A stretch of 64,000 nt of DNA, taken from assembly GCF_050920415.1 (NCBI RefSeq), contig NZ_CP169309.1. One strand, given 5' to 3'. The DNA is from Escherichia coli. GTDB taxonomy: Bacteria; Pseudomonadota; Gammaproteobacteria; Enterobacterales; Enterobacteriaceae. The position numbers were made by a program, and so were the translations under genes. Positions 10,613-63,051 of the stretch are shown piece by piece. The notes beneath the pieces are model-generated. The model did not search any database, was not told where the DNA came from, and worked only from the letters and a program-made list of their open reading frames with translations. Each line of letters starts with the position of its first letter. Position 1 is the first letter of the stretch.

Positions 10613-11277
10613 TAAATCGGGAACAGAGGATGGTTAAACAGCCGGGTCAGCCAGCCTGCGGCGTTGGCGTCACTTAACGCGCCACGTCCGGCATAGGAGA
10701 TACGGGCATCGGCGATCCGCTGGGAAGAAACCGAGTTGTCATTCTGGATATCGTCGGCGCGCACCAGGCCGCTTAAGCGGATGTACTCATCGCCCTGATT
10801 GAGGGTGAGCCATTTCTCGCCGCGAATTTCCAGGATGCCGTTGGGCTGCACCGCATGAACGGAAACGGTGATCTCCCCGCGCAGGCTGTTCTGCTGCTGG
10901 GAGGTGGCGCTGCCGTCAAAGTCGCGGTTGGCGTCGATGGAGCCGGAAAGGTTATTTTTGGTGTGACCAAATACCGTTGGCGCGGTAATATCGACGCTGT
11001 TGCTTTTGCCAAAGTTGGTTTTCGCCTGTTTGCTCGACTGGGTGGATTCTTCGAGGATCACTGTCAGAATATCGCCCACGCGGTAAGCCCGCCGATCGGC
11101 GGTTAGCGACCAGTTGTAGCCCGTTTCAAACAAGCCCCCGGCACGCCCGTCTGCCGGAGGCGGCGCTTCGGTTTTCGGTGGCGCAAAGTATGCGTCGTCT
11201 TTTTTGACCAGAATGGCCTGCGATTCACACCCGCTAAGCAGGGGAAGCAGCGCCACCAGCCAGAGATAATTTTTCAC
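10612..11277 (-). CDS. lfgH: Flagellar L-ring lipoprotein FlgH-like
   Basis: 221 aa; lipoprotein signal [17 protein letters not shown]; conserved FlgH core (…[13 protein letters not shown]…). Confidence 0.9.
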
Positions 11278-11345
11278 GTTCTGCCTGTTTAGTGTTGCAG
11301 GCCACGGGGGTGGCCGGTTGTTTGGTGGGTGCGGAGCTGTTTGTT

Positions 11346-11470
11346 CCCCCTCACCCTAACCCTCTCCCTCAAGGGAGAGGGGACTGACCTGTGCGCGTTG
11401 TTACATTGTGCACCGCTTTTCTCCCTCTCCCTGTGGGAGAGGGCCGGGGTGAGGGCATCAGGCCGCACCG
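11346..11470 (+). repeat. Copy B of the composite palindromic intergenic repeat
   Basis: ccccctcaccctaaccctctccctcaagggagagggg … ttttctccctctccctgtgggagagggccggggtgagggc; lies between the flgH start and flgG stop. Confidence 0.8.
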
Positions 11471-11481
11471 CCCTTAACGCC

Positions 11482-24367: not shown

Positions 24368-25189
24368 ATGACTTCTGATAAAAAAGTAACTTCCGGTACG
24401 ACAAGCCAGAAACAAAACAACATTGTCACTCAAAAAATATCACGCCAGAAGGAATTGTTTCTATTATTTTGGGTTGATGAGTCCGATGATAGCCGACGTT
24501 CTATTTTTGAAGAAGCATGTCTGACGCGTTATTTCAATATCCTTTATTCCCCCGAGTATAAAAAAGAAACACAGATAGTTTATCATTTATCAATTAACAC
24601 ATTTAATCAAATCAAAGAAATATTAGAAATCTTTATAAACAAGAATGGAGGTAAAACTAAAGCAAAGGTTAAAGAAGTCAGTTTATTCTCACATGGGGGG
24701 CCAATTCATGGTCCTACAACCTCAAACTCTATAAATACACCTTCCGTGCCTAAATACCCACAACAAATGGACATATCCGGAGGATGGGATTCAATTGATT
24801 TTAACTGGTCAAACAATGCTATGTTTGTTATGTATGGTTGTCGCACTAGTTATGCAAGTGATGATTCAGGACAAGGTTTTGCCAGTAAATTATCCCTATT
24901 AGATAATTTTAAGGACGTGAATGTCTGGGGTCAAACAGAAAGTACTTATCCATCTTATTTCCCAGATATCAGGACAACGTCGATTATGAGGTCAATAAAT
25001 ATAGGTTGGTCTTTTTCACCAACATATATGGTTGCCAATTCTGAAGGTCAAGGATGGGATGCATTATTCCCGGATAATCGAAATCCATTAAAAGCTCTCC
25101 CTATGCAGTGTTATAATAATGGGACATTGATTTTAACCTGCGATCAAAGCAATTTTAATGATCACCGGAAGAATAAATCAAATGATTAG
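24368..25189 (+). CDS. Hypothetical protein with a caspase-like (clan CD peptidase-type) His…Cys dyad; AT-rich
   Basis: 273 aa; hydrophobic strand + SHG (VSLFSHGGP, His109) and, 49 residues later, hydrophobic strand + GC (AMFVMYGCRT, Cys158), the arrangement of caspase/CHAT-type catalytic dyads. Inferred by eye only. No signal peptide. Confidence 0.45.
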   Translation: MTSDKKVTSGTTSQKQNNIVTQKISRQKELFLLFWVDESDDSRRSIFEEACLTRYFNILYSPEYKKETQIVYHLSINTFNQIKEILEIFINKNGGKTKAKVKEVSLFSHGGPIHGPTTSNSINTPSVPKYPQQMDISGGWDSIDFNWSNNAMFVMYGCRTSYASDDSGQGFASKLSLLDNFKDVNVWGQTESTYPSYFPDIRTTSIMRSINIGWSFSPTYMVANSEGQGWDALFPDNRNPLKALPMQCYNNGTLILTCDQSNFNDHRKNKSND

Positions 25190-25721
25190 CATTGTATTGA
25201 GAAGCTTTATTTTATTATTCATAATAATAGTGTATCCGGATTATAATAAAAACCCACCTGCCTTTGAAGTATATGGGGAAAATGACATACTTAAGGATAT
25301 GGTTATTAATATGAAAACTTATAGATACCATAGTAAGGAAAACTCTTCCCCCACAGCTATAGTGCAAACCATCCTTTTTAAAGGAAATATACAGCAAGTT
25401 TTTGAAAGCAATGACATGGGTGGTGCGAGCTTCTTTTTTTCTTATAATAATAAGGTTGAAACGCTGGTAACAGACGCTTTCTTTTTAAATAAAAAATTAG
25501 ACAAACTGCATGATGCAAATATTTTTGAGGTTATAAAGCATAAGGAAAACATCGTTATTAGATATTACAAGTGCAAAATTGAATATATGCAAAGAGAAAA
25601 ATTTATCGAAATAGAGATATCAACAAACAAAAATAGTTATTTTAACAAGAATGGAATAAAACAAAAAGATACAAATAAATATAACACATATTTCTTCAAT
25701 TACTTTGAGTCTCAAAAATAA
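25158..25721 (+). CDS. Hypothetical small membrane-anchored protein, partner of the upstream gene; AT-rich
   Basis: 187 aa; N-terminal hydrophobic segment (ISIVLRSFILLFIIIVY), Lys/Asn-rich remainder; overlaps the upstream gene (alternative start 25182 gives an 8-nt overlap). Confidence 0.45.
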   Translation: MITGRINQMISIVLRSFILLFIIIVYPDYNKNPPAFEVYGENDILKDMVINMKTYRYHSKENSSPTAIVQTILFKGNIQQVFESNDMGGASFFFSYNNKVETLVTDAFFLNKKLDKLHDANIFEVIKHKENIVIRYYKCKIEYMQREKFIEIEISTNKNSYFNKNGIKQKDTNKYNTYFFNYFESQK

Positions 25722-25724
25722 ATT

Positions 25725-26129
25725 TTATTTTGTCATGCGCGCCCTCCTAATCACCTCAATAATCCCCGTCGTCGACACCGACGGCGTGCGGGGGAAATAG
25801 ACCACCTCACAAATATACGCGAAGCTATCAAACTTCCCTGCCCAGTCATCGCCCATCACCAAAACATCCGCACTGTACCCCCGCAGATATTCCGCTTTCT
25901 GCGCCAGCGATTCCTCGAGAAATACGCCATCCACGCACGCCAGCCCGGCGATAATCGCCATGCGGTCATCCTGAGGGTAAACCGGTGCCCTGCCCTTTTT
26001 GGCAATATTTAAGGCGTCGGACGACACGCCAACCAGCAGCCGTTCGCCCAGCGTGCGGGCGCGTTGTAAAAGGCGCAGATGACCGACATGAAACACATCG
26101 AAGGTGCCGAAGGTGATGACCGTTTTCAT
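25725..26129 (-). CDS. Cytidylyltransferase, TagD/glycerol-3-phosphate cytidylyltransferase-like
   Basis: Start at internal Met (MKTVITFGTFDVFHVGHLRLL…); HxGH nucleotidyltransferase motif; 134 aa; begins 3 nt after the fliJ stop. Confidence 0.75.
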   Translation of the reverse strand: MKTVITFGTFDVFHVGHLRLLQRARTLGERLLVGVSSDALNIAKKGRAPVYPQDDRMAIIAGLACVDGVFLEESLAQKAEYLRGYSADVLVMGDDWAGKFDSFAYICEVVYFPRTPSVSTTGIIEVIRRARMTK

Positions 26130-47706: not shown

Positions 47707-48219
47707 TCATTGTGATATTTCCATCTCTGTGATTAATACCGGATACGCATTTAATTGCAGAGTTTGCACGAAATTATCGCAGATAACTGGCAATAACAAT
47801 AACCCATCAGCCCGCTGCTGTAATACCTCCATTCGTTCTACTGATTCAACATTAACAACCAAACCAAGGGCATTTAGCGATTTAAGGATCTCCAGATGTT
47901 CACTCATCCAGCGCAGAGAAAAAGGATCATCACCAATTATAAAAACAGGCCCCCAGCCGGTTAATAACTGGCGTTTCATTACGGAACCAGGATGAAGTCG
48001 AGTACATATTACAGGAAATACCCCCTGTTGCGATGGTTCCGATGATGTGGATAATTCAGAAATATTTTCCATTGTTAGTGAAGAATTAACATCCATTAAT
48101 AATGGTGAAACAACCTCACTTTCCTTGCTAGTAATGGCTGCACTAATCTGAGAGGAAAATAACAATATTATTACGTATAAACTCATTTTTAACATAACAA
48201 ATTCAATCCGTTTATTCAT
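47707..48219 (-). CDS. Hypothetical secreted/membrane protein, AT-rich
   Basis: 170-aa ORF with N-terminal hydrophobic signal-like segment (MSLYVIILLFSSQISAA); no assignable motif. Confidence 0.45.
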   Translation of the reverse strand: MNKRIEFVMLKMSLYVIILLFSSQISAAITSKESEVVSPLLMDVNSSLTMENISELSTSSEPSQQGVFPVICTRLHPGSVMKRQLLTGWGPVFIIGDDPFSLRWMSEHLEILKSLNALGLVVNVESVERMEVLQQRADGLLLLPVICDNFVQTLQLNAYPVLITEMEISQ

Positions 48220-48285
48220 GTTATAGAATAATGATGCTATAAATCATCATTAATGTTCAATTATTTAATCACACAGTTTAAAAAA

Positions 48286-48789
48286 TCATTGACCAATGTG
48301 AATTGGCAATGTACCACTCAAGTTAAAATCACTGAATATTTTATCAATTTCTCTTGCAGTTTCTATATATTTAACCTCTTTCGTACTTGCATTATAAATA
48401 GCCCAAGCCTCGGGATGGGATGTTCCACCAAACCTTACAAAAAAACTTGATTTCATATTATTATATAAATTAACATCAGGAAAAGGATCTTCTCCAAAAT
48501 TAGTAGTATTGAATAATGAAAGTTCGTATCGCTTAGAAAATTCTATTGGTAGGATAGCTTCACTGCCATCAATAGCATTCATCCAGAGTTTGTTACCATT
48601 ATATTCCAACAATAATCTCTGTTTTGCATGTGTTTTATCTCGTTCTTTAACGACAGCGAATACCTTTTTAACAACCTGCTGTGCGGATGGTCCTATTGTA
48701 TTACCAAAAGATGGCAACCCGATTTTGCCATAAACACTCTCCTGAATGAAATAAATATCCGTTTTATCGGCCTCGACAATATCTACCAT
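48286..48789 (-). CDS. Hypothetical cytoplasmic protein, AT-rich
   Basis: 167-aa ORF; no signal peptide; no assignable motif. Confidence 0.45.
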   Translation of the reverse strand: MVDIVEADKTDIYFIQESVYGKIGLPSFGNTIGPSAQQVVKKVFAVVKERDKTHAKQRLLLEYNGNKLWMNAIDGSEAILPIEFSKRYELSLFNTTNFGEDPFPDVNLYNNMKSSFFVRFGGTSHPEAWAIYNASTKEVKYIETAREIDKIFSDFNLSGTLPIHIGQ

Positions 48790-49904: not shown

Positions 49905-51796
49905 GCGTTAAGTGAGTAGGCCACCGGAACCTCCCCGACAGCCTCTCGCAGAACCGTACGTGAAACTCTCGCTTCATACGGCTCCCGTCAGGCAAACGCG
50001 CTTCCTGGTCCTGCTTTCCAGTGGGCAAACAACTCCGGCTTCTCTTTTGACAGCCTTTCCATTAGCTGACACGCCTTCGTCTTTCTATACCGCAGGGTTT
50101 TATATTTCTTTCTCGCCCACGCAATCAGCGTCAGATTAATATATCTGCATACTTTCTTCATCGCTGATTTGTGGTATCTCGCGTAATAATTCAGCCACCC
50201 CGATATTATCGGATTCAGCCACTTCGCAATATCTTCGAGACTCATCTCCACCCTGCGTCTGATCCACAGTTTCCTGAGTTTTCCAATCATGCCTTTCTGC
50301 GCACGGTTACTCGCCGCCGGGCTGAAACTCGTAAAGAGGTTTCCCCGCCGGTGGTTACGTGCTCTTCGCGCTCTGAACGTATACCCCAGAAAATCAAACT
50401 GCACTGTTTCATGGTTCGCCTGTCGTTCGCTGTCTTTGCAGTAAACTACTTTCGTTTTCTCCGGATGTAATTCCAGTCCACATTCCTGAAAACGTTTTGC
50501 CAGCTTATTCAGTAATTCCTCTGCCTGTTGTTTACTGCCACAATGAATTAATCCATCATCTGCATAACGGCACAGGGAATTTCCGGATAATGTAACGTCA
50601 GCCATTTATCAAACACATAGTGCAGAAATAAATTCGCCAGTACCGGGCTGATGACTCCACCCTGTGGCGTACCTTTATTTCTTTCCTTCAGTGTTCCATC
50701 CGGCATCTGCACCGGCGCTGTCAGCCACCGGCGAATAGACAGTCTTACCCATTTATCCGCACAATGTTTATCTACTGCCCTGAGTAATAAATCGTGGGAG
50801 ATATTATCGAATAACCCTTTAATATCAAACTCAAGACACCAGTCGTATTGCCAGCAACGTTTTCTGGTGACTGCTATTGCATCCAGCGCTGATTTTCCAT
50901 GCCGGTATCCGTATGAATCATTCAGGAAATAACGCTCCACTAATGGTTCAAACGTTACCAGCACCGTCATCTGCGCTATTCGATCGCTTACTGTCGGTAT
51001 TCCTAAAAGTCTTTTGCTGCCATCCTTCTTCGGAATTTCCACCGCACGCACTGGCGGCGGCATCCAGCTTCCCGACGATAACCTGTTCCAGATTTTGTAC
51101 AGATTTCCTTTCAGATCCCGCTCAAAATCTTTCAGCGTCTGGTTATCCACTCCGGCAGCTCCGGCATTCGCCTTTATCCGCCGGTACGCTTCCACCACAT
51201 GCAATTTACTGACCTGAAACGGTTTTGTCTGTTCACACACAGCCTCCTCCTGCCTACAGTTGGGCTGTGATGCAGACTGCCCGACGCTGTCCCTTCGCTC
51301 CACGTTCATTACAAACGCTTCCTCACTACTACGAACAGCTCTGCCCCGGTTTCGCACATCGATACTCTCATACTCATAATTTCGGTTATTTGTATTTCTC
51401 TCTTGAAATTGCGACGACCGGTTCCCGTAGTTCCTGCAAAGAGCCTGATACAGCGTCATGCCTGCTATACACCGGACACCATTCACGCAGCATTCGGAAT
51501 TCACCCGTAAATTAATCCCGGCGGTATCACGAAACCTCCGGTTTTGATGTCACTTAGGACTAACGACGTTTCAACACAGGTTCGGGTTTACTCATCTCAC
51601 TGTATCTCACATAGGATCAGATCTCGTCTGATCGTTCCCCCTGCGCTCACTACCATGGCTCTTTACCACAGCAGCCGGGGTTGTTTGGGACCGACTTCCG
51701 ACAGCAGATCCCGGTGGGCCTGCCACCATCTCTTCACAAGCTTATGCTTATTACATGCAAAACGTCCCGTTTTGCATCTTTGTGCCTACGGCACAC
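49905..51796 (-). mobile_element. Bacterial group II intron (about 1.9 kb)
   Basis: 5' end GTGTG on the minus strand (complement of cacac at 51792-51796); RT/maturase ORF; domain V-like hairpin gagccgtatgaagcgagagtttcacgtacggttc (complement of 49951-49984) just after the ORF stop. 3' boundary is approximate. Confidence 0.65.
49988..51309 (-). pseudogene. Group II intron reverse transcriptase/maturase, frameshifted
   Basis: RT motifs (…GIPTVSDRIAQ…, …TPQGGVISPVLANLFLHYVFD…) in ORF 50548-51504; YADD and maturase domain X (…GWLNYYARY…) in ORF 49988-50605. The two parts are in different frames. Confidence 0.7.
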
Positions 51797-51942: not shown

Positions 51943-54042
51943 TTAACCTCGGCTCACCGTTTTCGATTCCATCCAATAAATGACCCGGTTGGATGTGGGC
52001 TGATCGCCAACAACTTTGCCATCTGCAGAGATTAGCTTCAGCTCTTTATTAGCCTCATCACCGAAGTAAATCATGCGGTAGCGAAAATAACCGCCCCAGG
52101 GTTCGCGTCCACCCAGCGAACTTTGCATAAACCAGGCGCGGGAGTCGTGAACCTGGTCATCATAGAGAGCCAGTAATTCAGCGCAGGGCTGAGTTCGCGT
52201 TCGCGTTCCCGTTCCCAGTGAATCAATAAAAAATTGTGGATAGAGTCCGTTTCCCATAGCCTTAATTTGTTGATATTCCTTTGCTTCATCATCGCCATTA
52301 ATCAGATACACCGGATATTTAGGAATGACATCCACAAGAATCTGAATGGCTTTCTCCGTGACGCTGCCGTTAATATCGCGCGTCCATCCTTTATAATCGC
52401 TCTGAAATTCTCGGGCTGCCTCTCGCAATTGGTACTGAGCGTTCGTCGGGTCAAGGATAGGTATGCCCTGATTACTTTCATCAAGTGTGCCATTGCCTTT
52501 CTGCGTGTTCGCCCGCTCTTTTTCGATATTTTCCATTTGTTCTTCGCGCGCTTGGGCCTCTTTATCAAGTCCATCTTTATCCAGCTGTGGCGCCTTAATA
52601 TAAAAAGGTTGCACAAGAAGGCTGTTGTTCGCATAGCGACCGATACGCCAGGCGGTGATCCAGCCGATCTGATCGCTAATTGCGCTTTCAAGAACCTGGG
52701 CAAGTTGATAGGGGTGATAACCTTCCCTCGTATCAATCATTTCTTCTGTACCCTGCAAGGTGGTGTTCAGCAGCGTTTGTCGCCAGATGTTGAAGCGTTT
52801 TGTTAATGAATTAGCAATCGTAAATTCCTTTACGCTAGAAGGACTCATAATTCGCAGAGGCGACACACCTTTTATTAATGGAGTAACAAATTTAGAATAA
52901 ACAGCAAGTGGTGCTCCTGAATCAAATGCAGCAAGATACATATCATGCAGGGCTATCTGAGAAAGAATTTCGCCTGAGTCACCACAGGACTTCCCCTGAT
53001 CGCGAACGGGATAGCCACCACCGACATCAGAGTGCATCCCCGGATAGATAACTTCCTCTGCATATAAAGGATAATTGCCTTCAGGACGACGGATTGAATC
53101 CAGCGGAAAGCACAACCGCTGTTCATGCGCAGCGACGAAGTGGCGGCAGCATTTAATCAGGCCGGGAAACTGCGTCTCATCAGGGAGTTGCTGAGTACTA
53201 TCGGCCCATCCCATATGACCGGCTGCGCCCGGTAAAACATGCGCCGCCCCCACAGAAGCTACGGTATCCAGCAGCCCCAAAAACTCAATACTGACAGCTA
53301 AACCGGCCAGCATCACCTGTTGCCTCTGCGGGCAAGCTAACTGAGTCAACCAGTTAACAAAAGTTCGTGCTTCCGCTGCGCCACGGGAAAATCCGTAGAT
53401 AAACAGCCTTACGTTTAGCAGGCGCGGACTAGCTTGTTCTAACTGTCCCTGTAATTTTTCCAGGTAGGGGTTAATCACATTGCGACGATTCACTTCACCA
53501 GTCATCGGCCAAGGAGCACGCATAAGAGGAATGTGCTCTTTTGCCACCTTCTCATTCAGTCCATTTTGGGTTGGGTCAATAGCATAGCTAAGGGCATCCA
53601 CGAGACGTAATAATGCCCAATTAATTCGGTCTTCACCACCGGTGGCAAATTCCAGTCCGCTGTTGCTGTAATCCATTTCACCTATCTTGGGAAATGGTGT
53701 GCCTACACCAGGTATGTAATAGGAAAAATACCCAGCATTACGGTCTTTAATACTTGCGTGGAATAATTTCGCAATATTGGTTGGATGAGAGGCTTTTGTG
53801 TCATTATATTCATTATTATTTGTACCATCAAAAAACAGACTAATATGCAGACTTTGACTACATGTAAAGCCAATTCTAAATCCAGCCTGTTTACTACAGT
53901 TGGTTTTGTGCTCCTCTGTTTTATTGATTTGTTTCAGGTAGTTCGCGTTTACCTGCGCTTCAGATAATATTAATCGCCCATCTTCAGGGAACACCGGGGG
54001 GGCATAACACGGAAAAGCCAGACCACTTATTTCGCTGGACAT
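51943..54042 (-). CDS. tle1: Type VI secretion phospholipase effector, Tle1-family (DUF2235 alpha/beta hydrolase)
   Basis: Start at internal Met (MSSEISGL…), 699 aa; N-terminal …LFFDGTNNN… motif and GxSxG nucleophile elbow (IYGFSRGAAEA) characteristic of Tle1/DUF2235. Confidence 0.75.
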   Translation of the reverse strand: MSSEISGLAFPCYAPPVFPEDGRLILSEAQVNANYLKQINKTEEHKTNCSKQAGFRIGFTCSQSLHISLFFDGTNNNEYNDTKASHPTNIAKLFHASIKDRNAGYFSYYIPGVGTPFPKIGEMDYSNSGLEFATGGEDRINWALLRLVDALSYAIDPTQNGLNEKVAKEHIPLMRAPWPMTGEVNRRNVINPYLEKLQGQLEQASPRLLNVRLFIYGFSRGAAEARTFVNWLTQLACPQRQQVMLAGLAVSIEFLGLLDTVASVGAAHVLPGAAGHMGWADSTQQLPDETQFPGLIKCCRHFVAAHEQRLCFPLDSIRRPEGNYPLYAEEVIYPGMHSDVGGGYPVRDQGKSCGDSGEILSQIALHDMYLAAFDSGAPLAVYSKFVTPLIKGVSPLRIMSPSSVKEFTIANSLTKRFNIWRQTLLNTTLQGTEEMIDTREGYHPYQLAQVLESAISDQIGWITAWRIGRYANNSLLVQPFYIKAPQLDKDGLDKEAQAREEQMENIEKERANTQKGNGTLDESNQGIPILDPTNAQYQLREAAREFQSDYKGWTRDINGSVTEKAIQILVDVIPKYPVYLINGDDEAKEYQQIKAMGNGLYPQFFIDSLGTGTRTRTQPCAELLALYDDQVHDSRAWFMQSSLGGREPWGGYFRYRMIYFGDEANKELKLISADGKVVGDQPTSNRVIYWMESKTVSRG

Positions 54043-54584
54043 GTTGCAGGTTCCTTCATCTCGCGGGGTTCTTTGATAGGATAATTTGGTGTACCATATT
54101 TCTGGCAGACGGTTGTCACTTTTATCTGATTGCACGATAGAAAATGAACGGTCAGGCCACAAAGCTCAGCATCGTATTCCGGGATATCAACAATTACTTT
54201 ATATTTTTGATAATTTGCAGCATGTTTAGCATACGCATCTTCTTCATAGCCAAAACCTTCTTTTTTCATTGCAATAGGTTCAAGGGGGTTCGGGTCTACT
54301 TCCCACTCAATCCGGGCCTTTAATCCCACACGCCACTTATCTGGCAGCATAACGCAACAATATCCTCCACCGTCCCCGAATGGAGAAATATTTGGCCCAC
54401 CGTAACCATTGATGTGTAAATAATTTATAGCCTTATCCGTATGATTTATCCCATTAATATCCACAGCAGTGTAATCTCTGCTATTTTTTGCCATTGAACA
54501 GCCTGATACTGCAAATAAAATCATTAGAGAATAACATTTGAAAATCGCTCTCATACTGATACTTTTCCTTATTTCGCTGGACAT
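54027..54584 (-). CDS. Lipoprotein, putative Tle1 immunity protein (Tli-like), tandem copy 3
   Basis: 185 aa; lipobox (…LFAVSGCSMA…); paralogous to the two upstream copies, with a divergent central segment. Confidence 0.7.
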   Translation of the reverse strand: MSSEIRKSISMRAIFKCYSLMILFAVSGCSMAKNSRDYTAVDINGINHTDKAINYLHINGYGGPNISPFGDGGGYCCVMLPDKWRVGLKARIEWEVDPNPLEPIAMKKEGFGYEEDAYAKHAANYQKYKVIVDIPEYDAELCGLTVHFLSCNQIKVTTVCQKYGTPNYPIKEPREMKEPATCPAK

Positions 54585-55123
54585 GTTGCAGGTTCCTTCA
54601 TCTCACGGGGTTCTTTGATGGGATAATTCGGTGTGCCATAACCCTCGCAGACGGTTGTCACTTTTATCTGATCGCATGGCAGAAAATGTACGGTCAGGCC
54701 ACAACGTTCAGCGCCGTATTCCGGGATATCAACAATTGTTGAATATTTTCTAAAACTGTTTAGCGCAACTTTCTTCCATGCTTCAAATTTCTCCCTGTCC
54801 ACATAACCTGGAGGCAGAGGAGCTGTATTTGGATCAACCTCCCACTCAACCCGGGCTTTTAATCCAGAATGCCACTTATCTGGCAACATAACACAACAAT
54901 ATCCTCCACCGTCCCCGAATGGAGCAATATTTGGACCACCGTAACCATTGATGTGTAAATAATTTATAGCCTTATTCGTATGATTTATCCCGTTAATATC
55001 TCCAGCAGTGTAATCACCGCTATTTCTCGCCATTGAACAGCCTGATACTGCAAATAAAATCATTAGAGAATAACATTTGAAAATCGCTCTCATACTTATA
55101 CTTTTCCTTATTTTGATGGACAT
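54569..55123 (-). CDS. Lipoprotein, putative Tle1 immunity protein (Tli-like), tandem copy 2
   Basis: 184 aa; lipobox; near-identical N- and C-terminal thirds to copies 1 and 3. Confidence 0.7.
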   Translation of the reverse strand: MSIKIRKSISMRAIFKCYSLMILFAVSGCSMARNSGDYTAGDINGINHTNKAINYLHINGYGGPNIAPFGDGGGYCCVMLPDKWHSGLKARVEWEVDPNTAPLPPGYVDREKFEAWKKVALNSFRKYSTIVDIPEYGAERCGLTVHFLPCDQIKVTTVCEGYGTPNYPIKEPREMKEPATCPAK

Positions 55124-55662
55124 GTTGCTGGTTCCTTCATCTCGCGGGGTTCTTTGATGGGATAATTTGGTGTACCATATTTCTGGCAGACGGTTGTCAC
55201 TTTAATCTGATTACACGTTAGAAAATGAATCGTCAGGCCACAAAGCTCAGCATCATATTCCGGGATATCAACAATTGTTGAATATTTTCTAAAACTGTTT
55301 AGCGCAACTTTCTTCCATGCTTCAAATTTCTCCCTGTCCTTATTGCCTGGAGGCAGAGGAGCTGTATTTGGATCAACCTCCCACTCGACCCGGGCTTTTA
55401 ATCCAGAATGCCACTTATCTGGCAGCATAACGCAACAATATCCTCCACCGTCCCCGAATGGACCAATATTTGGTCCGCCGTAACCATTGATGTGTATATA
55501 ATTTATAGCCTTATCCGTATGATTTATCCCGTTAATATCCACAGCAGTGTAATCACCGCTATTTTTCGCCATTGAACAGCCTGATACAACAAATAAAACA
55601 ATTAGAGAATAACATTTGAAAATCGCTCTCATACTTATACTTTTCCTTATTTTTCTGGACAT
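55108..55662 (-). CDS. Lipoprotein, putative Tle1 immunity protein (Tli-like), tandem copy 1
   Basis: 184 aa; lipobox (…LFVVSGCSMA…); 16-nt overlaps link the three copies head-to-tail. Confidence 0.7.
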   Translation of the reverse strand: MSRKIRKSISMRAIFKCYSLIVLFVVSGCSMAKNSGDYTAVDINGINHTDKAINYIHINGYGGPNIGPFGDGGGYCCVMLPDKWHSGLKARVEWEVDPNTAPLPPGNKDREKFEAWKKVALNSFRKYSTIVDIPEYDAELCGLTIHFLTCNQIKVTTVCQKYGTPNYPIKEPREMKEPATCPSK

Positions 55663-55975
55663 GTTGCAGGTTCTTTTACTTTGAGAGATTTTAATTGATG
55701 GGTGTTATTTCTACGACAACAAAGTTTTGACAAAGAAGCAAATAAAATGCATATCTTTTGATTGTCACACATTGGAATATCGACAGAGCATTGATGATAT
55801 TACGCAAAATATATTGCAGCCAAGTGAACTGACATTACGATCGAACACAAATGCAACATGATGGATACTACCATTACATGTCGAGCTTGATTTTCCGCTT
55901 ATTTTACGATTATCTCTTGATATTAACAGCTACGGACTTTTAAACAGATAAATCTCCCCGTACATCACTACAATA

Positions 55976-56740
55976 TTATCCTTCGAAGTCCCGCAAAGCT
56001 CCAAAATATTTCGCGTCATTGGCCCTGAAAGCAATATCAAGACAGTGGGCAAAATAGCTTTCCTGACTGAGTTCACTGACTGCTTTTTCCTTCATCAGGG
56101 CTTCAGCGTCGCAGATACAGCCCATCAATCCCACCTGTACATCATCCACCCGATTCATCTCCGGGTTGTCAGTAAGCCTGCGTTCTGGTGAAAAACTTCC
56201 TGATTTCCAGTTAATCTCTCCATCACGGTCTAACCAGCTCCAGAACAACGCAATATCAGTAAATGTCGCCTGCTGCTCGTTGGTCAAAACATGTGTGAAC
56301 AGCAAAGGGAACACCCGATTATCATAGTAACGCAGCAATCCGGTCTGTTCTTCCCACTGAACCTGTGACAATACCTGAAGATGCCGCCCCAGCAGGTCGA
56401 ATGTAAGAGGGGATATCAACAAAGTAAGACGCGGCGTATCAGCAAATGACGCCATCAGTTGCGCCAGAAATTTGCGATGACTACTGAGCGCAAAGTACAG
56501 GCGTAACACTACAGGGGAATACTCCATCGTCTCAGCTTCAGGCGTTCCTTCAAACAGGGCATACCAGTGAATGGCTGGCGACAGATGAAGCATATCATTT
56601 TGCAAAGGTTGGTCTGTTCCAGCCTGGTCAACAAGCACATCTATGTAATCCAAACCAGCGGCAGAACAGAATGATTCAGTCTGCTTCAGCCAGATAATAT
56701 ATTTGTCTTGATCGGTAGCGTGTGGCGATACTGTTATCAT
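55976..56740 (-). CDS. DUF4123-like type VI effector adaptor/chaperone, putative
   Basis: 254 aa, directly downstream of vgrG; …LLRYYDNRVFPLLF… resembles the DUF4123 (R/Y)FYDPRV signature as I recall it. Confidence 0.5.
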   Translation of the reverse strand: MITVSPHATDQDKYIIWLKQTESFCSAAGLDYIDVLVDQAGTDQPLQNDMLHLSPAIHWYALFEGTPEAETMEYSPVVLRLYFALSSHRKFLAQLMASFADTPRLTLLISPLTFDLLGRHLQVLSQVQWEEQTGLLRYYDNRVFPLLFTHVLTNEQQATFTDIALFWSWLDRDGEINWKSGSFSPERRLTDNPEMNRVDDVQVGLMGCICDAEALMKEKAVSELSQESYFAHCLDIAFRANDAKYFGALRDFEG

Positions 56741-56752
56741 TGTCTTTCTCCC

Positions 56753-57447
56753 TTATCCACGAGGCGCAAAAGCGGCGGCGGCTTCCTGCGCCCTTTTCAG
56801 GCACTCCTTACACACCGATTTTTCTGGTGCTTCCTCATCCTCATCGTTGTTATCATTCTGATCGGACGACGCATTACTGTCATTTTGCTCAGCCGCTAAA
56901 CTTTTATCATCTGCCAGCGCTTTCAAAACCGCCGGTTGTAGCGTCGGCACCGGCGTTCCCGGACTACCGCCGCTATTGAGATTGATTTTCGGCCCGACGA
57001 TGTCCACGCCCCCTGAATGGATGACCACAAACGAACCACCCACCTTCAGGGTGATTTTACCGCCACTCTCCAGTACGATTTCATCCCGGACCTTCATTCC
57101 CAGCGCACCGGTAATCTTCCTCGCCAGGTCGCCCTTCACCTCCAGACTGTGCTTTCCCTCCACCAGACTGATATGGTTCCCCGTCGTCTTATGCTCCTGC
57201 TTCCCTTCCACCGTCACTTTACGGTCGTTTCTGACATACAGGCCGTCATCGTGACTCACGCTCACCGTCCGGTCATTCGTCACCTTCAGCGTCTGGTCAT
57301 TACGTACCGTTATGCGCCGGTCGTTCGCCACCGTGATACTCTGGTCGTGGCCCCCTTCTTTTCTGGTGCCGACCTCAACCGTCTGCCCCTTCACCACCCT
57401 TATCTTCTGGTCGTTACCGATGGTCTCCGTATGGTCATGCTTCACGT
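56753..57447 (-). pseudogene. vgrG: vgrG, C-terminal part (gene interrupted by an IS21-family insertion)
   Basis: 230-aa frame with VgrG beta-helical repeats (…ITVANDRRITVRNDQTLKVTNDRTVSVSHDD…); in frame with the N-terminal part once the IS and one target-site duplication copy are removed. Confidence 0.8.
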
Positions 57448-57547
57448 GTCAGCGCCAATGATATAAGACAGTAATTCACCATTTGGATTGTCCGCTCCAC
57501 CCAACATGTTGTTTCCTTAAGGTTCCTACACCACAAAGGGAACACTC

Positions 57548-58718
57548 ATGCTGAGCAGAGAGGACTTTTACATGATAAAGCAAATGCGCCAGCAAGGTGC
57601 GTATATTGTTGATATTGCCACTCAGGTTGGTTGCTCTGAGCGGACTGTCAGACGGTACCTGAAATACCCGGAACCTCCGGCCAGAAAAACACGCCACAAA
57701 ATGGCCAAACTCAAGCCGTTCATGGACTATATCGACATGCGTCTGGCTGAGAATGTCTGGAACGGCGAGGTCATCCTGGCGGAAATCAAAGCGATGGGTT
57801 ATACCGGTGGCCGTTCCATGTTGCGTTACTACATCCAGCCCAAACGTAAGATGCGGCCATCGAAGAAAACGGTTCGCTTCGAAACTCAGCCCGGTTACCA
57901 GCTACAGCATGACTGGGGAGAAGTTGAGGCTGAGGTTGCCGGGCAACGATGCAGGGTTAACTTCGCGGTTAATACGCTGGGGTTCTCACGTCGCTTCCAT
58001 GTCTTCGCGGCACCAAAGCAGGATGCTGAACATACCTATGAGTCACTGGTCCGCGCCTTTCGCTACTTCGGCGGCAGCGTGAAAACCGTGCTGGTCGATA
58101 ACCAGAAAGCCGCAGTGCTGAAAAATAACAACGGGAAGGTGGTGTTCAACTCCGGGTTCCTGCTGCTGGCCAATCACTATGGCTTCCTGCCACGGGCCTG
58201 CCGTCCACGAAGGGCCAGAACCAAAGGTAAGGTGGAACGGATGGTGAAATACCTCAAGGAAAACTTCTTCGTCCGGTACCGCCGGTTCGACAGCTTCGCC
58301 CATGTTAATCAGCTACTGGAGCAGTGGATGGCTGACGTTGCCGACAGGCGGGAACTTCGCCAGTTCAGGCAGACACCGGAACAGCGCTTCACGCAGGAAC
58401 AGGTGCATCTGCAGGCGCTGCCAGGTACGGACTTCGATACCAGCTACTTCGATATCCGTCATGTCTCCTGGGATGGCTATATCGAGGTTGGCGGGAACCG
58501 TTACAGCGTGCCGGAAAGCCTGTGTGGCCAGCCGGTATCAATACGGATCTCGCTGGATGATGAACTGCGATTTACAGTAATGAGCAACAGGTAGCATCGC
58601 ACCGTCTCTGTTCGGCTGTATACGGCTGGCAGACCGTGCCGGAGCATCACGCCCCACTCTGGCAGCAGGTCAGTCAGGTGGAACACAGGCCGTTGAGTGC
58701 CTATGAGGAGCTGTTGTG

Positions 58719-58719
<1 letters not shown>
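57548..58719 (+). pseudogene. istA: IS21-family transposase istA, frameshifted near the 3' end
   Basis: 348-aa ORF ends at 58594; the expected C-terminus (…WQTVPEHHAPLWQQVSQVEHRPLSAYEELL*) continues in another frame and ends at the TGA overlapping the istB start. Confidence 0.75.
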
Positions 58720-59512
<793 letters not shown>

Positions 59513-59569
59513 TGACCAATAGCGGACATTAAAAATGGCGAAAAACGGCCAATAATCTTGGCGTTGACA

Positions 59570-61111
59570 CACGTCCGTCGTCCGGTCGTTAAGCACCTCC
59601 GTGTCCATGTTCTTCTGCGCGTGGATATACACCTGCTCACTGTCCGTCGCATCCTCGAAACGCAGTTCATTAAAGCCGCTTCCTTTATAGGTCTTCGAGC
59701 GGATGGTCATCTGCGTCCGCGTGCCCGGTAAATCCCCCGGTGAACGGTTGTCTTCATGGTAGGTCCGCCCCGTCACAATGGGCTGGTCCGGGTCGCCGTT
59801 CAGAAAGTCCACTATCACTTCCTGACCCACACGCGGTATCGCCAGATTGCCGAACCCCGGTCCCGCCCATGCCTGCGACACCCGTATCCAGCATGAACTC
59901 TCCTCCGTCATCCCGTGATAACGGTCCCAGTGAAACTTCACCCGTACCCGGCCATGTTCGTCGCAGAATATCTCCTCGCCCTTCGGCCCGGTCACGATGG
60001 CACTCTGCGGGCCGTCCACCTTCGGCTTCGGCAGCGGCGCGTGACGCCACGTCCTGTCCGCCGGTATCACCTCAAACTGATTGCTCAGCGTCGTTCCCTC
60101 GCCGTGACTCCCGTGCAGCGCCTGCGGCTGTTCTCCCCGCAGTGTGCTTCCCACAACCTGCCATTCCCGGTTCAGCGTCCCTGAGGGATGGCCCGTCAGC
60201 CGGAACCGCGTTCCCGGCCACAGTCGCGCCGTGTTACACACCCCGCTCGCCGTCTCCGCCCCGTTCCGCCACCCTTCCGTCTGGTAACGCGCAAAGTCCT
60301 GGCCGTGCTGCTCATCCTTGAAACGCCCCGGATAATCAAATATCTCGTACTGCGTTCCCTGCCCGTTCAGGCTCTCCCCGGCATGGCTGTAGTACCCCGG
60401 CCACCCCGGCGTTTTGAACATATAATCCTGCGTCTCCACCGACGCCACGCTTATCTGCGCACGGTAACGAAACTCGCTGATGTACTCCGTCGTTCCCCCG
60501 GTCGTCGTGTCCGGGTTAAACGCCAGCGCCCCCATTCCCGTCAGCCCCGCCACGTCATCACACACCGCCAGCTTCTGTTCCGGCCCTTCCTGACTGCAGC
60601 GCTCATAAAAGAAGATACCTTCCTCCGCCCACAGCCGGGTCAGGAACGCCAGGTCGCTCTCCCCGTACTGCACGCAGAACTCCCGCGCCGGGTGCGCCTC
60701 ATAGAACAGCGGCATCCACGCCGTCACCCCGTTCTCTTCAAGAAGCTGTGCTGATATCGTCTGAATGTCCTGCTGCTGGAAGATACGGAAGTTCTGCCGT
60801 AACCCTGCCCGCCACAGCGGCGGGCTGATGCTCAGGGAATAACGCATCTGCCAGTCGTTGTTCTCACCGAGCTGCACCTCCGTCACGATACCGCTGACGT
60901 AACGCTGTGCAGTGTCGCCCTGCCAGACCGTCAGCAGCGCGCTTTTCTCCAGAAAATCCTCCGCCGTCAGGTCAGACAGTCCGCTGGCGATATCCACATC
61001 CAGGATGAACGGTGTGCAGTGGTGCTGGTACAGACGGAAGCTCACCACTGCCGTCGCCATCTCCACAATACCGTCCACCGACAGCGTGAAACGTAATCCT
61101 TCTGAGGACAT
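59570..61111 (-). pseudogene. vgrG: vgrG, N-terminal part (gp27/gp5-like spike domains), interrupted by the IS21-family element
   Basis: N-terminal 514 aa with VgrG features (MSSEGLRFTLSV…, …YIHAQKNMDTEVLNDRTTDV); the 561-aa ORF runs on into IS-derived sequence. Confidence 0.85.
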
Positions 61112-61327
61112 ATGACCTCCCTTGATTCACTTACAGAACACTGGTTGTCTACTGACCATGCAGCAGAGGGTGCCAGTACAGCGTTACGCTCATATTCAGG
61201 TACGCTACCGCCCGGGTTCCCGGCATCCACCATCTCCCTCATGAAAGCGTAACTCCTTACTGACACTCATTTTTTACACGTACAAAAACAACATCCTGCA
61301 CTAAGGCAGGATGTTGTTGACTCAGAT

Positions 61328-61846
61328 TTATGCTTCCAGCGGTGCACGCCAGTCATCGGCACCAGAAGTACCGGATTTGATGTGCTCCCACTCAACCTTA
61401 CGGTAGGCCAGTGATACTGCGAGCAATTGCGTAAACTCACGCTGTGCAGGGTCCTGGCAGTGCGGCATATGCAGGTTCATGTCCACAATCGTCGCGTCAG
61501 TAAGACGTGTGGTGAAGTAGTGCTCCTGCTTGCCTTCAACAGAGGTACGCCACCAGTGCAGCTCCACTTTCGGCAGCATTTCACCGGAGGCCAGCGCGTT
61601 GTACAGCAGCGGAACGGCTTTGTTCAGCGCCACGGTGAAAATGAACGGTTTGTGAGCACGCTGCCCGGAAGGCTGACCAGACTGCGGATCGGTTGGAACA
61701 GTAACGTTATGCAGAAACTCCTGCACCAGCATTTCATCTTCGTGTCCCTGCACGTAGATATTGCCGACAGAATCTGCGGTGAAAGCACCGGCAGTGATGT
61801 TCCCCTGGGTCTGACCTGTAATTGAAATGTAACATGGGGTTGGCAT
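61328..61846 (-). CDS. hcp: Type VI secretion tube protein Hcp
   Basis: 172 aa; N-terminus MPTPCYISITGQTQG… and overall size typical of Hcp. Confidence 0.9.
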   Translation of the reverse strand: MPTPCYISITGQTQGNITAGAFTADSVGNIYVQGHEDEMLVQEFLHNVTVPTDPQSGQPSGQRAHKPFIFTVALNKAVPLLYNALASGEMLPKVELHWWRTSVEGKQEHYFTTRLTDATIVDMNLHMPHCQDPAQREFTQLLAVSLAYRKVEWEHIKSGTSGADDWRAPLEA

Positions 61847-62547
61847 TTATGAACTCCTTGTGAAATTATCAACTGCTGTTTTACGAACAACCCGTCGTTA
61901 ATCCCCGACAGGTTAGAGTGTGATGCGGCTCACATCAGGAACCACACCCTTTTCTTTATTCGAGTTACAGGCACACGTAATTAGCACCTACCGAAAAACT
62001 CTTTTATGGTGTTTAAATATATTTTTAGTCAATTTCAGAACACGGTCACATAAGCTAAAAATATATCAACATCAACAGTAGAATTATCCATAACGTATCC
62101 TTACCCCCATAAAAACCTACAATTTCGTCAAAAATCAATTATTACAACACTTACTTCACCATCGTTCCGGCACGCAATTAAGATATTCCTTAAAGAAATT
62201 TCTTATGATGTATTGCTAGCAATTAATTAATTTATAAAACCATACATAAAACTTATTAATCAATTTAATAAACACATATAAATCAATATGTTATGGCGCT
62301 TTATTGGCCGTAAAATTATATTCGCCAAGTCTATAAATACCAAATTGATTTCACTATCATGTATTAATAATGAAGGATACATCTCTTTCAAAAATATAAA
62401 TAGTTCTTTTAATATTTTATTTCACGAGTAGAATACCGATCACAACAGAAGGAAGGTTACATTATCTAACTGCCACTGAAACGGTATTGTCGGTATTTGT
62501 ATGCAGTACGAAAATGCTGTGCTCATGGCCTGAACGGGAACATTTTT

Positions 62548-63051
62548 ATGAGCAAAATGAACAACAATGGCGGCAGTGTCGCGCCGAAAGAAAGAATCAG
62601 CGTTCGGTATACACCAAAAGTTGATGGGGTGGCTGCTGATATCGAATTGCCGCTGAATTTATTGATCACCGGCAATCTGAAAGGGAAACCAGATAACACG
62701 CCGTTGGATGAGCGAACTGCCATTGCTATCAACCGCTATAACCTCAACGCAGTCATTTCAGAAGCTGACATTGAACGGGAGTTTGTTGTTCCGGCTGAAC
62801 TCAGTGACGCACCCAATGAGCAAATGTACGTCAACCTGAAAGTCAAATCTATGGATGACCTTTCTCCTGACCATATTGCCAGCCAGGTACCAGAAATAAA
62901 ACGTCTGCTCGAATTGCGTGAAGCCCTGGTCGCACTTAAGTCTCCACTAGGCAATATTCCGGCCTTCCGCGCACAACTTCAGGCGCTACTGGAAAACGAA
63001 GACAGCCGCGAGCAGCTGATCCAGGAACTGGGTATCGCCGTTCAGAAATAA
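62548..63051 (+). CDS. tssB: Type VI secretion sheath small subunit TssB (VipA-like)
   Basis: Start at internal Met (MSKMNNNGG…), 167 aa; conserved TssB core (…ELPLNLLITGNL…). Confidence 0.85.
   Translation: MSKMNNNGGSVAPKERISVRYTPKVDGVAADIELPLNLLITGNLKGKPDNTPLDERTAIAINRYNLNAVISEADIEREFVVPAELSDAPNEQMYVNLKVKSMDDLSPDHIASQVPEIKRLLELREALVALKSPLGNIPAFRAQLQALLENEDSREQLIQELGIAVQK

Follow-up and report, generated by a model that had tools for sequence, protein, structure and literature searches.

The control region closest to the one analysed here is that of T6SS2 in APEC DE719 and ExPEC XM (Ma et al. 2018, PMC5874247; Yi et al. 2019, PMC6534853), which is the same locus, with hcp2B-vgrG and tssB transcribed away from each other as they are here. 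For these alleles, 96% identical to ours, hns-dependent repression, Fur independence, binding by CpxR in its phosphorylated form (CpxR-P) and promoter activity of an hcp-side fragment have been established in the literature. A second described region, designated "t6sP" in EHEC EDL933 and also found in Shigella sonnei (PMC13141884, PMC5363993, PMC10924462), exhibits the same architecture, being AT-rich, H-NS-repressed and of similar length (696 bp vs 701 bp), and it also has a terminator hairpin after hcp. A hairpin upstream of hcp (HP1), the -10 block of tssB and an inverted repeat in the putative tssB leader are common to both regions. The EHEC/S. sonnei region belongs, however, to a deeply diverged sister lineage, in which TssB is only 55% identical, the intergenic region is undetectable by blastn, a CRP-type core is degenerate and tssB is separated from tssC by an additional ORF of 74 aa. 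Outside E. coli and Shigella, the SPI-6 T6SS of Salmonella, a horizontally acquired island at the aspV tRNA, was reportedly found by Brunet et al. in 2015 to be silenced by H-NS via AT-rich promoter DNA. The T6SS of our source strain presumably lies at the aspV tRNA locus as well; SPI-6 differs, however, in T6SS phylogenetic group and gene order, and the likeness is one of description rather than of control-region alignment.

The window, i.e. the whole 64,000-nt stretch of E. coli DNA analysed (contig NZ_CP169309.1), contains a T6SS-2-type cluster in which, according to the ORFs and to the annotation of near-identical records, divergent hcp and tssB-tssC genes flank a non-coding gap. Judged by its sequence, the locus is the ExPEC/phylogroup-B2 allele of E. 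coli T6SS-2, known in APEC as T6SS2, with an hcp2B-vgrG2 unit facing away from the vipA2/tssB operon. Hcp is identical to that of ExPEC/APEC XM, the matching accession being also annotated for Hcp in UTI89 and ExPEC XM, and the gap is 96% identical to that of XM. The published hcp2B RT-PCR primers match the hcp gene of the window with 0 mismatches, and the promoter, EMSA and RT-PCR primers of DE719 could be placed with 0–2 mismatches. The tssC gene starts at position 63075. The effector cargo is Tle1-like in the source strain and XmtU/PAAR-like in XM, and vgrG of the source strain is split by an IS21-family element. When 5426 complete E. coli genomes were compared, 552 contained the gap sequence, at 93–99.7% identity and always between hcp and tssB; the particular allele of the source strain is rare, with only 3 genomes at least 99% identical. 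The gap is therefore real but largely ordinary, a control region already known from near-identical strains.

The earlier note had described about 700 bp of AT-rich DNA separating the two divergent units, and this description holds. The gap consists of 701 bp of non-coding DNA between the hcp start at 61846 (minus strand) and the tssB start at 62548 (plus strand), with a GC content of 32.6% compared with 51.6% for the whole window (GC and ranking were measured on 702 bp, the first base of tssB being counted in). Its AT content, 67% overall and approximately 73% within the core, compares with 48% in the window; the core (61997–62446) has approximately 27% GC, ranging from 16 to 40% across 50-bp bins. 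Seven runs of at least five A or T residues were counted, and TpA steps account for 10.8% of the dinucleotides in the gap compared with 4.4% in the window, a 2.4-fold enrichment. Among the non-overlapping 702-bp blocks of the window the gap ranks third in AT content (rank 52 of 6330 sliding windows) and, when ATG-started ORFs of at least 90 aa are counted, it is the second longest ORF-free stretch of the window; the sole longer one (10613–11481) has 59% GC and is mostly covered by a GTG-started ORF. The divergent hcp/tssB layout was observed in approximately 45 loci of Enterobacterales and Pasteurellaceae, usually with gaps of 560–1190 bp and 24–37% GC, although three Pasteurellaceae loci have gaps of only 56–224 bp. 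Given this recurrence, the AT-rich gap is not a chance property of the source strain. The features discussed below are collected in Table 1.

Table 1. Coordinates of the features of the hcp–tssB control region and its flanking genes (positions in the window)
Feature	Position	Strand	Basis
hcp (APEC Hcp2B), first gene of the hcp-vgrG-effector unit	61328–61846	-	ORF; 100% match to WP_001142963.1
Divergent intergenic control region	61847–62547	.	ORF calls, composition, comparison with E. coli genomes
Equivalent of the Phcp2B fragment, with promoter activity in a lacZ fusion	61822–62056	-	Primers Phcp2B-F/-R (PMC6534853) map with 2 and 0 mismatches
hcp Shine-Dalgarno AAGGAG, within the conserved TTCACAAGGAG block	61851–61856	-	AAGGAG invariant in 11 sequences from 8 genera
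HP1 hairpin, CCUGUCG-GGGAUUAA-CGACGGG, GGA in loop	61891–61912	-	Conserved; covariation
Candidate site: perfect CRP-type core TGTGATGCGGCTCACA (TGTGA-N6-TCACA)	61919–61934	.	Pattern match
CpxR-P segment, polymorphic	62033–62056	-	Full EMSA probe minus deletion probe, APEC DE719
Hypervariable AT-rich spacer	62057–62384	.	Diversity among 15 alleles
tssB promoter-like block GGATAC..CTCTTT, with A-rich UP-like stretch, weak -35 and -10 TAGAAT (62429–62434)	62385–62446	+	Conservation
Predicted tssB 5' leader, with GGA-type ribosome-binding site and inverted repeat 62472–62487/62514–62529	62447–62547	+	RNAalifold consensus, 17 pairs
tssB (vipA2), first gene of the structural operon	62548–63051	+	ORF; vipA RT-PCR primers match exactly

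We consider it probable that the gap is an H-NS-silenced bidirectional control region of T6SS-2 composed of three parts. The hcp-proximal part (61847–62056, approximately 210 bp) would comprise the ribosome-binding site, the leader hairpin, the CRP-like palindrome, the hcp promoter or promoters and the CpxR-P segment. The spacer (approximately 330 bp, about 25% GC) would be free in sequence, with its length and composition kept. The tssB-proximal part (62385–62547, approximately 160 bp) would provide a sigma-70-type promoter block followed by a leader of about 107 nt. After nucleating within the AT-rich tract, H-NS would extend over both promoters by spreading or bridging, keeping both units off in rich medium. 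For expression, host or serum signals would have to lift the silencing, with CpxR-P helping on the hcp side, and neither iron/Fur nor Dam methylation would have a part.

Silencing by a nucleoid protein, as anticipated in the earlier note, is borne out genetically, since deletion of hns in APEC XM raises the expression of hcp2B, clpV2 and hcp2A (PMC5874247). This derepression of both units in near-identical strains supports the involvement of H-NS. Furthermore, z0264 of the EHEC sister allele is derepressed approximately 60-fold in an hns mutant (PMC5363993), and the EHEC region has been described as a bidirectional promoter that is bound by H-NS and has more than one transcription start, namely several (PMC13141884). 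By analogy with these strains, H-NS may occupy the gap of the source strain directly, the ExPEC evidence being genetic and compatible with an indirect effect. Allowing up to 2 mismatches, the gap contains 4 matches to the high-affinity H-NS motif (TCGATAAATT-like) compared with 2.0 expected; as 4 matches are reached by 17% of shuffles, this enrichment is not significant beyond composition.

It is well established that silencing by H-NS depends on base composition rather than on sequence. The spacer, which we propose to be the platform for H-NS nucleation and spreading, has 22% segregating sites and a pi of 0.082 among 15 alleles, compared with 0.028 at 248 four-fold degenerate sites and 0.007–0.014 in the two gene-proximal modules; its rate of variation is about three times that of synonymous sites, and apart from short islands it is unalignable with the EHEC-type allele. 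An unconstrained sequence that outpaces synonymous sites and does not align between the two E. coli T6SS-2 lineages would also be expected if the spacer were functionless, a remnant of horizontal acquisition under neutral drift, flanked by two ordinary promoters. We regard this explanation as improbable, since the length (approximately 560–1190 bp at most loci) and the low GC content (24–37%) of the gap persist across genera whose loci have 33–53% GC, which neutral drift with deletion bias is not expected to maintain, and freedom of sequence is compatible with silencing by H-NS.

The length of the gap might alternatively be explained by a hidden small protein gene or stand-alone small RNA. Three ORFs of 43–53 aa lie within it, a 45-aa ORF overlaps the tssB leader, and a near-consensus promoter (TTGGTA-17-TATAAT) is located mid-gap on the minus strand. 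The earlier note had named a small gene in this position as an observation that would speak against a regulatory hub; none was found. All three internal ORFs are interrupted by stops or frameshifts in strains 93–97% identical, and the leader-overlapping ORF is cut to 3–20 codons in other genera. An Rfam scan at permissive E-value returned no match in the gap at E<0.5, the lone miRNA match lying inside tssB and being meaningless. Moreover, the middle of the gap is its least conserved portion, and most alleles carry a changed -10 in the internal promoter. A hidden gene or RNA is consequently very improbable.

A different mode of control is exemplified by the Sci-1 system (T6SS-1) of EAEC, another E. 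coli T6SS whose promoter lies upstream of tssB and is repressed in rich medium. According to Brunet et al. 2011, as cited in PMC5874247, this promoter carries overlapping Fur boxes and Dam sites. A switch of this kind responds to iron and methylation: the Fur boxes lie across the promoter and GATC sites, which puts Fur and Dam in competition. The AT-rich gap superficially resembles Fur-box-rich DNA, the other E. coli system, T6SS1, is Fur-controlled in the same APEC strain (PMC5874247), and the earlier note had suggested metal-responsive control and a scan for Dam sites. Neither metal-responsive nor Dam control was supported. The best Fur-box match in the gap (12 of 19 positions) does not exceed the mean best match of 300 shuffles (12.4), no match to the Fur consensus with up to 3 mismatches occurs across the window, and a triple-hexamer model of the Fur box likewise yielded nothing above chance in the gap. 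The gap contains a single GATC, at 62438, which overlaps no Fur-like site. In addition, clpV2 and hcp2B are unchanged by fur deletion and by iron limitation in APEC XM (PMC5874247), i.e. the ExPEC T6SS2 allele is Fur-independent. Sci-1 also belongs to another T6SS subtype, and we therefore consider it extremely improbable that the present region operates as a Sci-1-like switch.

On the tssB side, 10 of 11 enterobacterial sequences carry GTA(A/G)(A/G)AT at a distance of 98–127 nt upstream of the tssB start codon, the AAAAAG..CTT and GAATAC..CTCT blocks upstream of the -10 are also conserved, and the promoter-like block shows low variability within E. coli. Transcription of tssB is predicted to start near 62441, the -10 ending 113 nt before the ATG, which would give a leader of about 107 nt. 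The inverted repeat of this leader appears partly conserved, though weakly: among six sequences only, 85% of it is paired compared with 24–41% when the partners are slid, 4 pairs changed on both sides and 12 of 500 shuffles scored as well, and in the window sequence the z-score is -0.1, with several pairs broken in this allele. Two coding interpretations of the leader were discarded, namely a longer N-terminus of tssB beginning with the in-frame TTG at 62497, which meets an in-frame stop in the EHEC allele, and an upstream ORF (ATG 62514), which has anything from 3 to 35 codons depending on the genus. This variation indicates that the leader is conserved at the nucleotide level. Promoter-like hexamer pairs are numerous in the gap, but no more so than in shuffled sequences (2 compared with 3.2 expected), and simple scans can therefore not assign start sites. 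K-mer footprinting across 22 distant intergenic regions was uninformative, since chance alone makes AT-rich 10-mers recur (in up to 16 of the 22 under the null), and the sole candidate sigma-54 promoter (GG-N10-GC at 62294) is destroyed in UTI89-type alleles.

The hcp side provides functional evidence for the regulatory hub that the earlier note had expected, as a 235-bp fragment equivalent to the one listed in Table 1 drives lacZ in APEC DE719 (PMC6534853). Removal of the segment equivalent to 62033–62056 abolishes the CpxR-P gel shift in the same strain (PMC6534853). The reference CpxR box, looked for in the distal part of the hcp promoter, is GTAAA-N(4-8)-GTAAA; DE719, UTI89 and XM have GTAAT as the half-site, the window has GTGAC, and four variants occur among 15 strains.

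The earlier note had reported no unambiguous repressor box visible by eye. This needs amending, as a perfect CRP-type core is present at 61919–61934, the one match to TGTGA-N6-TCACA in 64 kb (0.05 expected), and could allow cAMP-CRP to control the hcp unit directly, as a layer added to H-NS silencing rather than an alternative to it. The core does not vary among the 15 E. coli alleles sampled and is retained at 9 of 10 positions in Pseudocitrobacter, and CRP sites have been predicted by software in the S. sonnei sister region (PMC10924462). Nevertheless, the whole 150-bp module is invariant, so that invariance of the core is not specific to the site; the core is degenerate in the EHEC-type allele, where its left half is lost, and it is lost in other genera. 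No credible -10 places the site at -41.5, -61.5 or -71.5, nor was a convincing fit obtained at class I or class II distance from a proximal -10, and if HP1 is transcribed, the core would sit at or downstream of the start. S. sonnei reporters are, moreover, indifferent to glucose (PMC10924462), and these bases also fit a reading as part of another hairpin of the leader (GGUGUGG/CCGCAUC), which is kept in O157 by wobble changes. Direct control by CRP through this core is accordingly doubtful.

Downstream of this core in the hcp direction, HP1 is supported by covariation. The pairing accounts for 93.3% of cells, compared with 33–57% when the partners are slid, 5 of its 7 pairs changed on both sides, and its covariation score was reached by 0 of 500 shuffles. 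Within E. coli, an A/G polymorphism at 61910 converts a U-G pair of the hairpin into C-G. The G-U pairs of HP1 form on the hcp-sense strand only, and from these pairs solely we infer that HP1 is part of the hcp 5' leader and present in the mRNA. A covariance model of the leader detected no further instances in Morganellaceae, Pasteurellaceae or the rest of the window.

A GGA is located in the HP1 loop or at its 5' edge in 9 of 10 hairpin-bearing sequences, and HP1 lies at a nearly constant 27–32 nt from the AGGAG. The loop GGA and that of the hcp Shine-Dalgarno, approximately 45 nt downstream, are within bridging distance, the arrangement sought in CsrA leaders. CsrA bound to both might block translation or destabilise hcp mRNA, a post-transcriptional gate added to H-NS silencing. 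The two motifs would then act like the loop GGA and the ribosome-binding-site GGA of the first T6SS gene in the RsmA/CsrA-controlled leaders of Pseudomonas aeruginosa (PMC10482370); the present case differs in that CsrA binding to the hcp leader is postulated from the conservation of motif and structure only. In EHEC, CsrA negatively regulates hcp3 and tssC, with AGGA at the ribosome-binding sites, according to the account of Wang 2017 given in PMC13141884. Deletion of hns or replacement of the promoter in EHEC is insufficient for protein production or secretion (PMC13141884), which indicates that silencing is not the whole story, and the finding of mRNA but no protein once the promoter had been swapped suggests a block that acts after transcription (PMC13141884). 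Conversely, GGA is short and expected in any Shine-Dalgarno sequence, Citrobacter wls619 lacks it in the loop, and Hcp3 protein of EHEC was made after a promoter swap in which the leader may or may not have been kept (PMC13141884). Taken with the dependence of the mRNA assignment on G-U pairs, these points leave CsrA control of the hcp leader possible but tentative.

A still more speculative extension, which we hold unlikely, is a two-layer gate in which the H-NS pad of the spacer silences both directions and RNA structures in the leaders (the GGA-loop hairpin of hcp and the repeat of tssB) control translation or mRNA stability, probably via CsrA. If true, it would explain the puzzle posed by EHEC, where hns deletion or promoter replacement raises mRNA and no working T6SS-2 results. 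In the same reading, the fast variation of the spacer could reflect diversifying selection or allele exchange that tunes silencing strength between lineages.

For the window, these findings correct the expected picture, in that H-NS and CpxR probably act and Fur and Dam do not. What is added here is a map of constraint at the level of single bases, in which the two modules, the tssB -10 block, the GGA-loop hairpin and the CRP core stand out as targets for mutagenesis. These additions are incremental and leave the general understanding of T6SS regulation unchanged. T6SS-2 is nevertheless the commonest type VI system of E. coli, and its role in ExPEC, APEC and EHEC is hard to study because it is silent in the laboratory; its control region is the place to unlock that study.

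The non-coding region between the ATG codons of the divergent hcp and tssB genes measures 701 bp, precisely where an earlier note had placed a strongly AT-rich control region of about 700 bp. Its GC content is 32.6% (over 702 bp, first tssB base included) versus 51.6% for the whole window and averages about 27% in the core; seven A or T tracts reach 5 bases or more. The region ranks third by AT-richness among 702-bp blocks of the window; the blocks at 25031-25732 and 48051-48752 (29.5% and 31% GC), equally AT-rich, both overlap ORFs and are probably horizontally acquired accessory genes. Since a GTG-started ORF covers the only longer ATG-ORF-free gap, which has 59% GC, the hcp-tssB gap is in effect the longest non-coding stretch of the window. 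A small gene, whose presence would have spoken against a control region, was not found: the three internal ORFs (43-53 aa) carry stops or frameshifts in strains 93-97% identical, and an Rfam search of the gap gave no match.

Features of the hcp-tssB region and its neighbourhood (window coordinates)
Feature	Position	Strand	Description
Tle1-like phospholipase	51943-54162		cargo (51943-56740)
DUF3304 ORFs	54027-55662		cargo; three tandem paralogues
DUF4123 adaptor	55976-56740		cargo
RVT_1 ORF	50548-51504	minus	reverse-transcriptase domain
vgrG, C-terminal part	56753-57445		interrupted vgrG (56753-61111)
istA	57548-58594		IS21-family element
istB	58716-59402		IS21-family element
vgrG, N-terminal part	59426-61111		interrupted vgrG
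Post-hcp hairpin	61287-61318	minus	perfect 13-bp stem, U run
hcp	61328-61846	minus	ORF in sequence
Intergenic gap	61847-62547		701 bp
Gap core	61997-62446
HP1 hairpin	61891-61912	hcp strand	CCUGUCG-GGGAUUAA-CGACGGG; 45-66 nt upstream of hcp ATG
CRP core	61919-61934		TGTGATGCGGCTCACA, perfect; immediately upstream of HP1
Spacer	62057-62384
Conserved island	62181-62194		AGATATTCCTTAAA, 14 bp
IHF core match	62281-62293		AATCAATATGTTA
Sigma-70 match	62315-62343	minus	TTGGTA-17-TATAAT
-10-like hexamer	62429-62434		TAGAAT
GATC	62438
Inverted repeat, tssB leader	62472-62487 with 62514-62529
tssB	ATG at 62548	plus	ORF in sequence
tssC	from 63075	plus	ORF in sequence

Of 5426 complete E. coli genomes, 552, including UTI89 and the duck isolate ExPEC XM, carry the gap at 93-99.7% identity, and tssB adjoins it in every case. 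In the annotation of matching records, the gap is flanked to one side by hcp, vgrG and effector genes and to the other by tssB, tssC, tssE, tssF, tssG, tagH, tssJ, tssK and further genes. Moreover, the window, XM and UTI89 encode the same Hcp protein (WP_001142963.1), and the published APEC DE719 primers (hcp2B promoter, hcp2B and vipA, i.e. tssB) map to the window with 0-2 mismatches. Thus, the locus is the ExPEC/B2 allele of E. coli T6SS-2, named T6SS2 in the APEC literature. Roughly 2300 other E. coli genomes, O157:H7 and strain W among them, have a sister system whose Hcp shares 94% identity with that of the window and whose TssB shares only 55-56%. The gap of the sister system, 696 bp long and of the same layout, is too diverged to be detected by blastn with the window gap. 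In two EHEC-type loci (L003 and L004, 4751-4975 in each), an additional hypothetical ORF of 74 aa separates tssB from tssC; the window-type locus lacks it.

With one representative genome per species, hcp was divergent from tssB in about 45 loci from Escherichia, Citrobacter, Pseudocitrobacter, Superficieibacter, Yokenella, Atlantibacter, Xenorhabdus, Photorhabdus, Morganella, Limnobaculum, Pragia and Aggregatibacter. Their gaps usually measure 560-1190 bp at 24-37% GC, irrespective of the GC content of the surrounding locus (33 to 53%); shorter gaps (56-224 bp) occur in three other Pasteurellaceae loci (Lonepinella, Avibacterium, Rodentibacter). In E. coli SCU-176 (L090, 6001-6855), an IS1 is inserted 142 bp into the intergenic region, marking the AT-rich gap as a natural IS target, and a second IS1 copy and an inversion part hcp from tssB.

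In the window strain, the hcp-vgrG-effector unit is probably crippled, because an IS21-family element splits vgrG. Directly 3' of the hcp stop lies an intrinsic-terminator-like hairpin (z = -2.7) that corresponds to 'region I' in h3R, the regulatory sequence of EHEC hcp3-vgrG3. The cargo behind vgrG is unlike that of UTI89 and XM, which is PAAR-like/XmtU. The RVT_1 ORF adjoining the effector genes may belong to a group II intron or a retron, or may encode a defence-associated reverse transcriptase.

The nearest known counterpart is this same locus as studied in APEC DE719 and XM. In XM, hcp2B-vgrG2 and the vipA2 operon are divergently transcribed, clpV2, hcp2A and hcp2B increase upon hns deletion, and clpV2 and hcp2B are unchanged under iron limitation or fur deletion, Fur controlling T6SS1, the other system of that strain (PMC5874247). 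The proposed nucleoid-protein silencing by H-NS is supported, mainly by such genetics on the same locus; the composition also fits (67% AT, TpA steps 2.4-fold enriched), with 4 high-affinity H-NS motif matches in the gap versus 2.0 expected, that is, no enrichment beyond composition. Metal-responsive control, also suggested earlier, was not supported: no 19-bp Fur box with up to 3 mismatches exists in the entire window, the best match in the gap (12/19) is at chance level (dinucleotide-shuffle best averaging 12.4), and the published fur and iron results are null. The single GATC in the gap likewise argues against Dam control. The Fur/Dam switch of EAEC Sci-1 represents another type of regulation, and the features that define it are missing from this region.

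In DE719, lacZ is expressed from a promoter fragment corresponding to 61822-62056, and a probe equivalent to 61833-62056 is shifted by phosphorylated CpxR unless the part equivalent to 62033-62056 is removed (PMC6534853). This CpxR segment is polymorphic among 15 alleles, reading GTGAC in the window and seven others and GTAAT in DE719, UTI89 and XM. The EHEC and Shigella sonnei regions are diverged sisters of the window region. In EHEC, z0264 rises about 60-fold upon hns deletion (PMC5363993), and the region, described as an 'unknown bidirectional promoter' that is bound by H-NS and has several start sites, yields more mRNA when replaced or when hns is deleted, without full protein production or secretion (PMC13141884). 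In S. sonnei, H-NS and CRP sites were predicted by software, and reporters were not induced by temperature, glucose or polymyxin (PMC10924462).

Across 15 distinct E. coli alleles, nucleotide diversity (pi) was 0.007 in the hcp-proximal 150 bp, 0.014 in the tssB leader, 0.022 in the tssB promoter block, 0.009 at all coding sites, 0.028 at 248 four-fold degenerate sites of the flanking genes, and 0.082 in the spacer, where 22% of sites segregate. This pattern confines sequence constraint to two gene-proximal modules. The spacer, of which only length and composition are kept, changes about three times faster than synonymous (four-fold degenerate) sites, an excess that may reflect mutation bias, recombination or selection. 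Within it, the conserved island recurs unchanged in the EHEC-type region, which cannot otherwise be aligned, shows a T to C polymorphism in one E. coli haplotype, and resembles an RcsAB-type box with spacing off by one. The IHF core match (chance expectation 0.14 per region) varies only at its four unspecified positions amid this hypervariable DNA. The best sigma-70 match of the gap, directed toward hcp and reading TATGAT at the -10 in most alleles, may belong to the spurious promoters that H-NS-covered DNA typically harbours.

Alignment of ten enterobacterial sequences revealed, on the tssB side, a conserved block ordered GAATAC..CTCT, AAAAAG..CTT and GCGTAAAAT, with the -10-like hexamer 98-127 nt from the tssB ATG in all ten. 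From sequence, we read this block as the predicted promoter of tssB, its -35 being weak and its upstream element A-rich; the predicted start near 62441 would leave a leader of about 107 nt. The long imperfect inverted repeat in this leader is 85% paired versus 24-41% in slid controls, with both-side changes in four pairs (six sequences), and the window leader folds no better than shuffles (z = -0.1); this structure is weakly supported.

On the hcp side, the block TTCACAAGGAG, which includes the ribosome-binding site, is nearly invariant, and the upstream hairpin HP1 is paired in 93% of cells versus 33-57% with slid partners (11 sequences), with both-side changes in 5/7 pairs and a covariation score reached by none of 500 shuffles. 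On the hcp strand alone, several pairs read as G-U; this favours an RNA structure and, by implication, an hcp start located upstream of 61912. The sole polymorphism within HP1 among the 15 E. coli alleles converts a U-G pair into C-G. The loop contains GGA in 9/10 hairpin-bearing sequences, and the distance from HP1 to AAGGAG is constant (27-32 nt). GGA in a hairpin loop and at the ribosome-binding site is the classic two-site CsrA layout, and we hypothesize that CsrA acts at the hcp leader. A passage in PMC13141884, citing Wang 2017, reports CsrA as a negative regulator of hcp3 and tssC in EHEC. A covariance model of the leader recovered no instances beyond the Enterobacteriaceae sequences used in building it.

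The CRP core adjoining HP1 is the sole match in the 64 kb (0.05 expected), invariant in 15/15 E. coli alleles and 9/10 in Pseudocitrobacter. Direct CRP control through it nevertheless seems unlikely: the core is degenerate in the EHEC type, lies at no standard activating distance from credible -10 elements, and admits another reading in which its bases belong to a second leader hairpin.

The AT-rich hcp-tssB control region is real and already known; the additions made here are incremental, namely a map of sequence constraint, the conserved -10 block of tssB, HP1, the invariant CRP core and the fast-evolving spacer. Composition and published genetics suggest that H-NS would nucleate on the AT-rich spacer and cover both promoter modules, keeping both units off, and sequence tests and published work leave Fur and Dam with no apparent part in control. 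Relief of silencing would require signals from host or serum, plus CpxR-P for the hcp unit, in line with published work on the sister allele of this lineage, and the leader structures may add a post-transcriptional layer.
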